NCBI GenBank assembly: GCA_023267755.1
Contig: JAHFMR010000005.1
Location: forward strand, 1 to 46,350
DNA length: 46,350 nucleotides
Direction: 5' to 3'
Source: a bacterium
GTDB taxonomy: Bacteria > Patescibacteriota > Minisyncoccia > Phycocordibacterales > Phycocordibacteraceae
In this document: one piece after another, positions 4,899 through 24,944 of the stretch
How positions within the stretch are numbered: position 1 is the stretch's first letter
How the letters are laid out: every line of letters starts with the position of its first letter
Program-made: the position numbers and the translations under genes
The notes under the pieces: model-generated
What the model was told of the DNA's origin: nothing
The model's input: only the letters and a program-made list of their open reading frames with translations
The model's database searches: none

Positions 4899-5102
4899 TG
4901 TGACCCCACGGGGACCGCGAGTACGCTTATCGAAACTTACAGTTTCAGTACACCTTGTGGAGATTTTGCTTCAGGAAATCGCAAAATCTGCTCACAAGGT
5001 CTTCGATTCCCCGCCGCAAAGCCTCCCAGGCTTTGCTTGGGGTCACAACGCAAAACGCCGCCAAACGGCGGCGCTCTGTTTTGCGTTGTGACCCCACGGG
5101 GA
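4899..5102. repeat. 16-nt direct repeat pair (tRNA-Glu 3' end copy) bracketing a hairpin-rich 172-bp spacer
   Basis: tgtgaccccacgggga occurs at 4899-4914 and 5087-5102. The second copy is the 3' acceptor/T-stem end of tRNA-Glu. The spacer carries hairpins at 4932-4946, 4952-5000 and 5039-5095. Confidence 0.85.
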
Positions 5103-5160
5103 ATCGAACCCCGATTTACGCCGTGAAAGGGCGCTGTCCTAACCGTTAGACGATAGGGCC
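5089..5160 (-). tRNA. tRNA-Glu(UUC)
   Basis: Hand-folded cloverleaf: GGCCCTA acceptor, anticodon loop CTTTCAC, T-arm CGGGG-TTCGATT-CCCCG. No encoded CCA. Confidence 0.95.
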
Positions 5161-7267: not shown

Positions 7268-8131
7268 ATGTCACACCAGCATATCGTCGTCCTCTATCAC
7301 GGTAAGTGTCCAGACGGATTTGGCGGTGCGTATGCTGCGTGGAAGAAGTTTGGTGACACCGCGGAATATATCCCTGTTAAGCATGGTGATTCGATACCGG
7401 AGAAGATGGAGGGACGTCAAATATTCCTCGTCGACTTCTGTTACCCAAAAGAAGATATGGAAAGACTCCGAGAGATCGCAGAGTCAGTCACTGTGCTTGA
7501 TCATCACGGGGGCGTTCGTGATGTTGTGACAACATTCCCGGGCATTTTCGATTCAGATCGTTCTGGATCCACTATCGCATGGGGTTACTTCAATCCTGAT
7601 ATTCCAACACCGAGACTCTTCACTCATCTGGAAGATGGCGATCTCTATCGTTATTCGTTCCCCGAGACTAGAGATATTTTCTCCTTTTTGCTCACCTATC
7701 CGTACGAATTCGAGAAGTGGAATGAACTTGTACAGATATTTGAAAATCAACCTACTCGAGATGCCTTGCTCGCAAAAGCAAAAATATATTCAGAATATTT
7801 CTTTCAGTTAGCTGACATGTGTGTGGCCGGCGCGAAAATCGTTTCATTTGAGGGTTATGAATGCTATTTTGCTAACTCTCATCCTGCAACAACAATGAAG
7901 TCGTACGTTGGAAACCAGCTTGTAGAGAAACTGCCACCGATAGCACTTGTCGTTTCCGCACATCCAGATGGATTCGGTGTTTCGATTCGTGGCAATGGTT
8001 CAGTTGATGTGTCAGAGATTGCCAGAAAATATGGCGGTAATGGACATCCAAACGCGAGCGGATTTTTCATCCCCGCATCGGGCCCGCTCCCTTGGCAAGA
8101 GGTAGAAAAGCATGAAAATCCTCGCGATTGA
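7268..8131 (+). CDS. DHH/DHHA1-family phosphoesterase
   Basis: 287 aa. HGKCPDGFGGAYAAW, VLDHH and C-terminal GGNGHPNASGF (DHHA1 GGGH-type motif). Confidence 0.85.
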   Translation: MSHQHIVVLYHGKCPDGFGGAYAAWKKFGDTAEYIPVKHGDSIPEKMEGRQIFLVDFCYPKEDMERLREIAESVTVLDHHGGVRDVVTTFPGIFDSDRSGSTIAWGYFNPDIPTPRLFTHLEDGDLYRYSFPETRDIFSFLLTYPYEFEKWNELVQIFENQPTRDALLAKAKIYSEYFFQLADMCVAGAKIVSFEGYECYFANSHPATTMKSYVGNQLVEKLPPIALVVSAHPDGFGVSIRGNGSVDVSEIARKYGGNGHPNASGFFIPASGPLPWQEVEKHENPRD

Positions 8132-9371
8132 GACTTCCTGCGACGAGACCGCCATCGCGATACTCGAATGCAGTGGCGATGAGAAAAATGCCCAATTCCG
8201 CGTGCTTGGGAATACGCTCCTCTCGCAGATAGATATTCATAAAGAATACGGCGGCGTCTTCCCCGCTCTCGCCAAGCGCGAGCACGCGAAGAACCTTGTC
8301 CCGATACTCGAGTCAACACTTGAGGAGGCAGAGCTCCTCCATGAAGATACGCAGGCATTGTCAGAGGAGACGCGCGCCGAGATTGCCACAATCCTCTCGC
8401 GTGAGCCGGGTCTCGCTGGAGCATTCTTCGATTTCATTACCGAATGCGAGCCGCCCTCTATCGACGCTATCGCGGTGACCACCGGTCCTGGTCTCGAGCC
8501 AGCGCTCTGGGTGGGCGTCAACTTCGCGCGCGCTCTCTCGCTCGTGTGGAATAAGCCCGTGGTCGCGGTGAATCATATGGAGGGACATATTATGGCTGCC
8601 CTGGCTCGCCGAAGCGAGAGCGGGGGTGGCACGAGCGAGGAGGATATTTTAGAAATAAAAGATGTCGAGATGCCGGTGCTCGCGCTCCTTATCTCGGGCG
8701 GGCACACCGAGCTGGTACTGATGAAAGAATGGCTGCAGTATGAGCTCATCGGGGCGACGCGCGACGACGCGGTGGGCGAAGCCTTCGACAAGGTCGCGCG
8801 TATGCTCGACCTCCCTTACCCGGGCGGCCCCGAAATCTCGCGTCTCGCTGAACTCGCCCGTTCCGTCGAATCCTCTGTTCCAGGGTCCCGAGGGGCACCC
8901 TCGTCTGACGAGGGTGCCCCTCGGGATTCCATTCTGGGAATTAAATTGCCACGACCGATGCTGCATGATGCGAGTTGCGACTTCTCCTTTGCCGGACTCA
9001 AGACCGCGGTACTGAATCTCTTGAAGACGCGAGTGGATATAACCGCGGTCGAGAAGCAGCACCTCGCACGCGAGTTTGAAGACGCCGTCGCCGAGGTACT
9101 GATGAAGAAGACCTCTCGCGCGCTTGAGGAGACTACCGCCACAACACTCGTGCTCGGCGGCGGTGTCTCTGCCAATACACACATCCGCCGCGTATTTACG
9201 CACTTTGAGGACACTAGGTGTCCACACGTCACCCTCCGCATCCCCGCCGCTGCTCTCACCACCGACAACGCGATTATGATCGGCCTCGCCGGCTTCTATC
9301 ACGCCGCCCGCGGCGACTTCACCGACCTCGCCTCTTTGAAGGCAAGCGGAAACGCTCATCTGGCCCCATAA
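8112..9371 (+). CDS. tsaD: tRNA N6-adenosine threonylcarbamoyltransferase TsaD with lineage-specific insertions
   Basis: MKILAIETSCDETAIAI, VNHMEGH, SGGHTEL, GEAFDKVARMLDLPYPGGP, DFSFAGLKTAV, GGGVSAN. At 419 aa it is roughly 80 aa longer than the E. coli TsaD I recall (337 aa). Confidence 0.95.
   Translation: MKILAIETSCDETAIAILECSGDEKNAQFRVLGNTLLSQIDIHKEYGGVFPALAKREHAKNLVPILESTLEEAELLHEDTQALSEETRAEIATILSREPGLAGAFFDFITECEPPSIDAIAVTTGPGLEPALWVGVNFARALSLVWNKPVVAVNHMEGHIMAALARRSESGGGTSEEDILEIKDVEMPVLALLISGGHTELVLMKEWLQYELIGATRDDAVGEAFDKVARMLDLPYPGGPEISRLAELARSVESSVPGSRGAPSSDEGAPRDSILGIKLPRPMLHDASCDFSFAGLKTAVLNLLKTRVDITAVEKQHLAREFEDAVAEVLMKKTSRALEETTATTLVLGGGVSANTHIRRVFTHFEDTRCPHVTLRIPAAALTTDNAIMIGLAGFYHAARGDFTDLASLKASGNAHLAP
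8886..8926. repeat. perfect 41-nt palindrome (20-bp arms) inside the tsaD reading frame
   Basis: TCCCGAGGGGCACCCTCGTC-t-GACGAGGGTGCCCCTCGGGA, checked base by base around centre 8906. It encodes RGAPSSDEGAPRD on both strands. Confidence 0.97.
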
Positions 9372-23577: not shown

Positions 23578-23668
23578 AATGATATAAATAATTATCTAAA
23601 TAATGCTAATAGTTTTCACTGTACTCCAAATCTCTTACTAGAAATTTCGTTATCCACACAATATCTCT

Positions 23669-23727
23669 AGGTGTCACCTTGCGATTATTTTATATTCTAT
23701 TGACTCCGCGAGGTGACACCTTATAAT
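23669..23727 (+). promoter_or_regulatory. sigma70-like promoter interlaced with a 15-nt inverted repeat upstream of the Y1-transposase-like gene
   Basis: TTGACT (23700-23705), 16-nt spacer, TATAAT (23722-23727), and the ATG 6 nt later. IR arms are AGGTGTCACCTTGCG (23669-23683) and CGCGAGGTGACACCT (23707-23721), with 1 mismatch. The right arm fills the spacer. Confidence 0.6.
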
Positions 23728-23733
23728 TGAACC

Positions 23734-24396
23734 ATGAAGAGAGATGCCCCATTTAAAACTGGTGAATGGTATCACTGCTATAACCAGAGTATTGAGGGGC
23801 GTTCAGCTTTTGTTGATTCTCAAGATTACTTTCGTTTTCTTGAGCTCCTCTACTTGGCAAATGATGAATGGCCACTACGTCGTAATGATATAGGTATACG
23901 AAAATTTGAAGAGGTCTTGAACCTTCCACGGAACAAGAAACTTGTTGCTATCGGCGCATTCTGTCTGATGACAGATAATTTTCACTTAGTATTACAGGAG
24001 ACTACCGAAGGAGGTATTACTGCCTTTATGCGGAAAATAGGGACGGCGTATACACTCTATTTCAACACACGGCATAAGCGAGTGGGGAATCTATTCCTTA
24101 AACCCTTCCGATCCCGTCATGCCACTCCTGACTCCATCCTCGACCTCGTCACCTACGTACACGCCAACCCAGCAAAACTCTATGAGCCAGAATGGAAGAA
24201 TAATCATGTTGTGGATCCTCAATTCCTTGAAGAACACTTGATTTCCTATCCATATTCAAGCCTTGGAGCCTATACTGGCACACGTACGCCAAATACTCTT
24301 ATTTTGGATGAGCAAATACAATCTGCAACACGAATTTCGCTACAGAAAATGCTCCAAGGAGCTCGGCGCTATTCTGCTAATTCTGGCATATTCTAA
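23734..24396 (+). CDS. IS200/IS605-type Y1 (HUH) transposase homolog, RayT-like
   Basis: 220 aa. LMTDNFHLVLQE (HUH position), YFNTRHKRVGNLF, YVHANPAK (Tyr motif). AT-richer than the core. No second copy or clear right-end hairpin seen. Confidence 0.8.
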   Translation: MKRDAPFKTGEWYHCYNQSIEGRSAFVDSQDYFRFLELLYLANDEWPLRRNDIGIRKFEEVLNLPRNKKLVAIGAFCLMTDNFHLVLQETTEGGITAFMRKIGTAYTLYFNTRHKRVGNLFLKPFRSRHATPDSILDLVTYVHANPAKLYEPEWKNNHVVDPQFLEEHLISYPYSSLGAYTGTRTPNTLILDEQIQSATRISLQKMLQGARRYSANSGIF

Positions 24397-24438: not shown

Positions 24439-24785
24439 GCAGACCAGGCTAGACGGTCGCTCTTGTCCGCCGCCGCAAGGCTTTGGCGTGACGAGGGAGG
24501 AAAGTCCGAACATACTTCCCTACCCTTGGGTAGGAAAATAGGTAGCGGGTAACGCCCGTCGTTCGTGAGGATAGAGGTGACCACAGTGACGCCAACGGCG
24601 AGAGCCCGAGGCTCCCTTCGGGGAGAATCCTGTCGAGAGACAGGGGTGCAACGAACAAATCCTTACCCGTATGCAAGGCCGTGTCCCGCTTCTAGCGGGA
24701 AGTGCCGCTCGATCCCGCTAGCAATGGCGGGACCAGATAAATGATCGTCCACGACAGAATTCGGCTTATCGGCCTGGTCTAACAC
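24439..24785 (+). ncRNA. rnpB: RNase P RNA, bacterial type A
   Basis: P1 pairing AGACCAGGC (24441-24449) with GCCTGGTCT (24772-24780). Conserved P4 strands GAGGAAAGTCCG and ACAGAATTCGGCTTAT are present. Confidence 0.9.
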
Positions 24786-24788
24786 ATG

Positions 24789-24818
24789 CAAACACCCACG
24801 CTCCTGCGTGGGTGTTTG
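24789..24818 (+). terminator. 13-bp hairpin terminator after rnpB
   Basis: CAAACACCCACGC-tcct-GCGTGGGTGTTTG followed by CTTTGCT. Confidence 0.65.
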
Positions 24819-24944
24819 CTTTGCTCATTGGAGAGCGAGACACATCTTGAGAAGAGAGTCTCGCAGCGCGACGGCGCGAGAGGAGGCGATTTTCTAGCAA
24901 GAAAATACGCCGCTCTCTTCGAGAGATGTGTCGAGCGGCCCAGG

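Follow-up and report, generated by a model that had tools for sequence, protein, structure and literature searches.

The tsaD locus and its palindrome

The window analyzed here is a 46,350-nt stretch of DNA corresponding to contig C11 of G000, a Patescibacteria genome from groundwater that spans 583 kb in 21 contigs and is 89% coding. Among its genes is tsaD (8112..9371, + strand), encoding the tRNA t6A threonylcarbamoyltransferase as a 419-aa ORF with a strong match to Pfam PF00814 (E=2.3e-74), the only such match in the whole genome. The TsaD ORF is intact, and both the invariant catalytic and nucleotide-binding positions and the conserved motifs are retained.

A perfect 41-nt palindrome (8886..8926; 20+1+20) lies in frame within this single tsaD gene, as had been recorded in the first-pass annotation of the window. 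Its arms, at 8886-8905 (TCCCGAGGGGCACCCTCGTC) and 8907-8926 (GACGAGGGTGCCCCTCGGGA), are 100% complementary around a single central base, T8906, and both strands encode SRGAPSSDEGAPR in matching frame, in agreement with the identical peptide that the same annotation had read from the two strands. The palindrome has the organization of a REPIN-like head-to-head pair of two 15-nt REP units, with the stem continuing for 3 nt beyond them on either side. The first unit (8889..8903, + strand) reads CGAGGGGCACCCTCG, is translated R-G-A-P-S and constitutes a small hairpin in its own right (CGAGGG-GCA-CCCTCG). The second unit (8909..8923, - strand) is the same sequence reversed, CGAGGGTGCCCCTCG on the + strand, with its in-frame codons shifted by one base (GAG GGT GCC CCT CGG) and thus translated E-G-A-P-R.

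An imperfect outer stem (TTCCAGG / TCTGGGAA) encloses the palindrome, and the computed RNA fold carries the stem into the flanks. The full inserted element is therefore likely to cover about 60 nt, or 20 codons (8878..8937, with approximate boundaries), a size compatible with the 17-20 extra residues of TsaD described below. Its left flank resembles that of a second copy of the repeat, located downstream of a RAYT-like gene on contig C5.

When the 583-kb genome was shuffled in its entirety three times under a Markov model, the longest perfect arm obtained was 11 nt, which excludes a chance origin for a palindrome with 20-nt arms. A Logan contig of 2737 nt from run X1 is identical to positions 8500-9300 of the window, with zero differences, and in a contig from run X3, originating from another sample, the palindrome is present with substitutions at three positions (G8884A, G8885A and T8906A, the latter at the center). 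The recovery of the palindrome in independent contigs from two samples indicates that it is real sequence and not an assembly artefact. The T8906A variant falls on the exact center of the palindrome and is equivalent to a flipped orientation of the element, and with the G8884A and G8885A changes the left flank exactly matches the one found at the copy downstream of the C5 RAYT-like gene (CCAGAATCCCGAGG).

Across the whole G000 genome we detected 103 perfect palindromes with arms of at least 10 nt and loops of at most 8 nt, versus about 6 in shuffled sequence; the majority of the intergenic ones resemble bidirectional intrinsic terminators (A-run, GC stem, T-run). Also present in the window, at 5038-5096, is a perfect inverted repeat with arms of 19 nt separated by 21 nt (TGGGGTCACAACGCAAAAC / GTTTTGCGTTGTGACCCCA), the right arm of which extends into the end of a tRNA gene (5089-5160, minus strand) belonging to a cluster of three tRNA genes.

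A dispersed family of inverted repeat pairs

A search of the whole 583-kb genome with the arm sequence, which the first-pass annotation had put forward as a check, returned 15 exact copies of the unit CGAGGGGCACCCTCG at 8 loci, so that the tsaD palindrome is not a single occurrence. This unit, hereafter referred to as family A, is also the most repeated 12-mer of the genome. All eight loci are inverted pairs, with spacers ranging from 5 to 16 nt: 5-7 nt at tsaD, at the C4 locus, in miaA and in ligA, but 15-16 nt at the remaining loci. The GCA-centered unit comes first in six of the eight pairs, including the one in tsaD, and the TGC-centered unit in the remaining two. One pair is intergenic (C4:53743-53777), two flank a RAYT-like gene (C5:2923-2967 and C5:3637-3681), and the other five are located, in frame, inside tsaD, trmD, rnhB, miaA and ligA. 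With five of eight loci inside coding sequences, the family is not predominantly extragenic, and all five host ORFs remain intact, with full-length Pfam matches.

Inspection of the flanks of the 16 family A units revealed a common ACGAGG...CCTCGT context followed by a variable base. The GTAG tetranucleotide is absent from all 16 units and their flanks, and CGTC is confined to the copies in tsaD and on C4. The ends of the eight copies show no visible direct repeat. A 15-nt spacer pattern is common to the rnhB pair and the one downstream of the RAYT-like gene, suggesting that the pair moves as a unit.

The intragenic copies are read in all three frames and in both orientations, yielding the peptides RGAPS, EGHPR, TRGTLV, RGCPS, EGAPR and TRVPLV, and this diversity of frames argues that no particular peptide has been selected. 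The family A unit contains no stop codon in any of its six frames. We considered whether this might be a special trait and rejected it as such, since about 31% of random 17-mers of the same composition are also free of stops; families C, D and E (see below) do have stops in some frames and are nevertheless present in genes. The stop-free reading of family A is hence permissive, and in itself unremarkable.

RAYT-like genes and their flanking repeats

The two family A pairs on contig C5 bracket a RAYT-like gene (C5:2988-3617) with a 209-aa ORF. The encoded protein matches the Pfam Y1_Tnp family (PF01797) with 33.8 bits against a cut-off of 23, and its sole NCBIfam match is to REP_Tyr_transpos (NF047646), with 49.9 bits against a cut-off of 80. 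It contains the motifs MPNHFHL (HFH) and YIHQNP. As judged from these sequence comparisons, the protein is distant from curated RAYTs; the closest RAYT-like protein within the genus is 37% identical, and the best overall match (46%) was found in another family of the same order. The arrangement of a gene bracketed by its own pairs is the layout that has been called a REPtron, and this RAYT-like Y1 (HUH) gene probably encodes the partner enzyme of family A.

The genome harbors five RAYT-like genes, each flanked by a different palindrome family. In addition to family A, these include family C (GTAGGACGTCGTACGTCCTAC), around the gene at C5:12541-12774, family D (CGAAGTCAGACTTCG), around that at C2:915-1133, and family E (CAAGGTCGAACCTTG), around that at C15:35181-35840. 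The family C unit does carry the GTAG tetranucleotide. For the C15 gene, copies of its own unit (CAAGGTTCAACCTTG) lie upstream (35136), within the coding sequence (35337) and immediately after the stop codon (35843).

The remaining RAYT-like gene lies in the window itself (23734..24396, + strand) and had been named in the first-pass annotation as the putative mobilizer of the tsaD palindrome. This assignment did not hold. The gene is preceded by an inverted repeat pair of its own (23668..23722; units AGGTGTCACCT / AGGTGACACCT) that differs from family A, it encodes NFH in place of the HUH motif, and its Pfam score of 19.8 bits falls below the cut-off of 23; we therefore rejected it as the partner of the tsaD element. 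No dispersed copies of its repeat (AGGTGTCACCT) were found in the genome. A unit related to AGGTGTCACCT, TAAGGTGACACCTTA, flanks RAYT-like genes and occupies trmD in relatives (G007). Downstream of the window gene, a bacterial class-A RNase P RNA gene (24441-24784; Rfam RF00010, 117.7 bits) is directly followed by a 14-bp perfect hairpin (24788-24819) that is probably its terminator.

Effects on TsaD and other host proteins

Residues 259-272 of TsaD are encoded by the palindrome and are located between helix 238-255 and the LPRPM block, within a segment (residues 250-277) whose aligned counterpart in solved TsaD structures measures about 4-8 residues. From YPGG to PRPM, the protein of G000 spans 48 aa, compared with a modal 29 aa among 78 metagenomic relatives. 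The ortholog alignment suggested in the first-pass annotation gave, within the genus, a loop of 28 aa in G000 versus a minimum, or baseline, of 8-11 aa. The gain attributed to the pair is about 17-20 residues, and the earlier estimate of ~18 residues more than in E. coli TsaD was thus about right. Structure modeling, also suggested at that stage, placed the insert in a loop: in an AlphaFold model based on 13 orthologues (mean pLDDT 88, pTM 0.88), the palindrome-encoded peptide at 259-272 appears as coil with pLDDT <50. The insert is accordingly modeled as a disordered surface loop in an otherwise confident fold.

Comparable gains in length coincide with the family A pair in three other host proteins. 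TrmD is 18 aa longer than the shortest loop of the genus and 15 aa longer than its closest orthologues, and RNase HII (rnhB) and MiaA exceed the shortest loop of the genus by 18 and 7 aa, respectively. In the orthologue alignments of TsaD, TrmD, RNase HII and MiaA, this pair-linked extra length is present only in G000. The pair in ligA (C6:35974-36008), the second unit of which is degenerate, follows another pattern: ancestral codons have been replaced, for a net gain of 1 aa. In a congener (G001, locus L140), a REP belonging to that species occupies the same position of ligA without altering its length, and simple insertion does not explain either of these cases.

Other repeat families occupy further genes of the same genome. 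The uvrA gene (C18:770-3493) contains three inserts, consisting of a family-E pair (1280-1321), a family-B pair (1849-1897) and a family-D-like unit (1038). In-frame copies of other families were also identified in HolB, class-I LysRS, DnaG, TyrRS, enolase and a P-type ATPase-like ORF, and in likely LeuRS and topoisomerase I ORFs, as judged by eye from their translations. Considering all families together, about 15 of roughly 32 repeat loci fall in coding sequence.

Distribution among relatives

Among 81 sampled species of the genus, family A is restricted to G000. The other 80 congeners contain a few single units with one mismatch, at the level seen in controls, plus one mismatched pair, and the unit was found in 0 of 80 metagenomic tsaD loci. 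A related pair in G052 (CAAGGGGCACCCTCG) was examined as a possible common insertion and rejected, since it is an intergenic terminator-like hairpin. The confinement of family A to one species, together with the distance of its RAYT relatives, indicates a species-specific and evolutionarily recent family. An empty-site tsaD allele was not encountered in four groundwater metagenome runs, in which the element was present wherever the organism was covered. A metagenome scan, from which the records of the window genome itself were possibly left out, returned no tsaD closer than 72% identity.

The loops of tsaD, trmD, rnhB and miaA in congeners contain other perfect palindromes, as single units or pairs, with arms of up to 23 nt. 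For the species whose RAYT loci were retrieved, to which this comparison is confined, we compared the palindromes inside genes with those flanking RAYT-like genes, and in G001, G004, G007 and G014 the latter are the same as those found inside their own miaA, ligA, rnhB, trmD or tsaD loops. The presence of RAYT-linked palindromes of each relative's own in the same loops identifies these loops as recurrent, tolerated landing sites.

In a TsaD tree, the nearest neighbor of G000 is G024, followed by G011, and all three have long loops, those of G024 and G011 (22 and 21 aa) containing other REP-type palindromes. The three palindromes belong to different families and start 5, 2 and 4 residues after R250 in G000, G024 and G011, respectively. 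These differences in offset and family disfavor, albeit not conclusively, a single ancestral insert common to the three genomes, and repeated independent insertion into a few tolerant places is the simplest reading.

A second palindromic stretch was observed at codons 87-97 of tsaD (window 8371-8403), a conserved, indel-free segment (TR-DKIAAILS-RE) that forms a perfect 29-33-nt palindrome with a center of 1-5 nt in about ten congeners (L002, L004, L005, L007-L011, L013 and L014). In G000 the palindrome is only imperfect. Its arms covary between species, with 31 double-change cells versus 15 +/- 3.5 in shuffles (0/500 as high), and the changes alter amino acids on both sides. Outside tsaD, the loci examined contained none of the words of this palindrome.

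Origin of the tsaD insert

The first-pass annotation had proposed that a palindromic element colonized a permissive surface loop. The eight loci, the flanking of a RAYT-like gene, the confinement to one species and the low-confidence coil in the TsaD model lend support to this proposal, and the tsaD palindrome is very probably a REP pair that is associated with a RAYT and tolerated by a surface loop. IS200/IS605-type Y1 enzymes and E. coli TnpA-REP recognize a hairpin in single-stranded DNA, cut beside it and rejoin it elsewhere. By analogy, the C5 RAYT-like enzyme would recognize a single-stranded hairpin and cut beside it, and the REP pair may have been copied by this enzyme into tsaD as single-stranded hairpin DNA, as has been proposed for REP and REPIN elements. 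The insert may then have survived through the combination of a sequence lacking stops in all six frames, a preserved reading frame and a loop tolerant of extra residues. The element would thus be DNA of a selfish or neutral kind, now specifying about 13-20 residues in an essential enzyme, and we infer that the insert is not a selected protein feature.

An alternative scenario is one of replacement, in which an older insert or hairpin in the tsaD loop of the common ancestor of G000, G024 and G011 was overwritten by the dominant REP family, either through conversion between copies or through enzyme-mediated exchange of hairpins. The nearly length-neutral ligA copy and the G001 REP at the same ligA site, which left length unchanged, are compatible with such overwriting, as are the long tsaD loops with other palindromes in the two closest relatives. 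The sister palindromes, however, start at different offsets after R250, and removal of the element returns each sister loop to near the 8-11 aa baseline, which fits three separate insertions; in addition, TrmD and RNase HII show clean gains in length versus many empty orthologues. On balance, we regard replacement as unlikely.

It might also be argued that the stem-loop is kept in tsaD for a function of its own, be it a translation pause between subdomains, mRNA stability or the binding of a host factor, with the repeat family merely serving as the source of the hairpin. As RNA, the hairpin is computed to be very stable (-51.8 kcal/mol, z=-7.5) and it could affect translation; furthermore, many congeners also carry a palindrome in the tsaD loop, and a perfect one with arms of at least 12 nt is present there in 11 of 78 metagenomic relatives, versus 3 of 80 control windows containing a perfect palindrome with arms of at least 9 nt. 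Most relatives, however, have no palindrome or hairpin in the tsaD loop, as reflected in the modal span of 29 aa, and in rnhB the loop is bare and minimal in 11 of 18 congeners. The identical element is also found in intergenic DNA and in four unrelated genes. Moreover, the arms pair up to the single central base, which an RNA hairpin could not use, so that the symmetry must arise at the DNA level. These observations make a selected hairpin very improbable. Lastly, G000 is a metagenome assembly, but an assembly artefact, or an ordinary lineage-specific loop whose palindromic character is accidental, can for practical purposes be dismissed in view of the same unit at eight loci, shuffle arms of no more than 11 nt and the independent contigs from two samples.

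Beyond the insertion of a REP pair into a tolerant loop, a broader and rather doubtful conjecture is that RAYT-linked hairpins of this Patescibacteria lineage also rewrite codons without changing protein length, as in ligA of G000 and G001, and strike a small set of core-enzyme loops again and again in different species. A hint of such rewriting by hairpins comes from the palindrome at tsaD codons 87-97, whose arms covary among congeners. If so, a domesticated hairpin-cutting enzyme would continually re-specify short stretches of essential proteins, and the palindromic symmetry of DNA would constrain protein sequence.

The reading of the tsaD insert as a tolerated REP pair has several implications. 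It depicts selfish hairpin repeats lodged in the translated loops of essential genes present in single copy, in a setting that offers little intergenic space and ranks among the smallest and most gene-dense bacterial genomes and with hosts that include tsaD, trmD, ligA, rnhB, miaA, uvrA, dnaG, topA and several tRNA synthetases. For annotation, it follows that unusual insertions restricted to a lineage, when met in proteins of Patescibacteria, may represent repeat DNA and not new functions; the inserts also mark loops that tolerate insertion. The genus, in which different families have naturally and independently entered the same loops many times and a few cases are length-neutral, offers material for studying the movement of REP elements and RAYTs.

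Comparison with known systems

In-frame REP units and pairs inside genes have been described as giving rise to "REP-decorated proteins", with pairs encoding 20-30 aa (Di Nocera et al. 2013, PMC3733652). These intragenic REPs favor replication and repair genes, with double inserts in uvrA of Opitutus terrae and Thioalkalivibrio; the authors suggested a linker or loop location for the inserts and equated some of them with Rickettsia RPEs (PMC3733652). The hosts identified here are alike, including ligA, rnhB, dnaG, topA, holB and a uvrA gene with three inserts. The family A repeats of G000 differ in being located in Patescibacteria, in lacking a conserved GTAG or CGTC tag, and in having units that are perfect palindromes with an asymmetric center of 1-3 nt. 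Their intragenic share is also far larger, with five of eight family A loci inside genes in a genome that is 89% coding.

The REPIN-RAYT system of Pseudomonas (Bertels and Rainey) and the E. coli REP/BIME elements with TnpA-REP are known as "REPtrons" (Nunvar 2010, Ton-Hoang 2012). As in these systems, the inverted units described here fold together into a single long hairpin, each family has one RAYT gene lying between repeats of that family, and several species-specific families, each with its own RAYT, are found in one genome. Classical REPINs occur in hundreds of copies, nearly all of them extragenic, and contain GTAG, whereas family A comprises eight loci, mostly in genes, has no GTAG and is associated with a RAYT-like protein that scores below the NCBIfam equivalog cut-off.

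RPEs are palindromic repeats located in frame in Rickettsia genes (Ogata et al. 2000, as cited in PMC3733652), and the CGTC tag has been assigned to rickettsial repeat families, with which no dedicated transposase is associated (PMC3733652). The G000 repeats share with RPEs their in-frame position in genes that are still apparently functional, the context of a small, reduced genome and the use of tolerated surface positions. RPE-1 measures about 100-150 bp; in contrast, the element described here is 41-60 nt long, flanks a RAYT-like gene and has a unit without the CGTC tag, and by this description the two are set apart. MITEs span 70-300 bp and have terminal inverted repeats and target-site duplications; the element described here is shorter, at 41-60 nt with approximate ends. 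Our search of the literature found no relevant paper on Patescibacteria, or the candidate phyla radiation, in connection with RAYTs or with palindromic or in-frame repeats. In-gene REP pairs are already known, and family A extends such pairs to a new phylum, the Patescibacteria.
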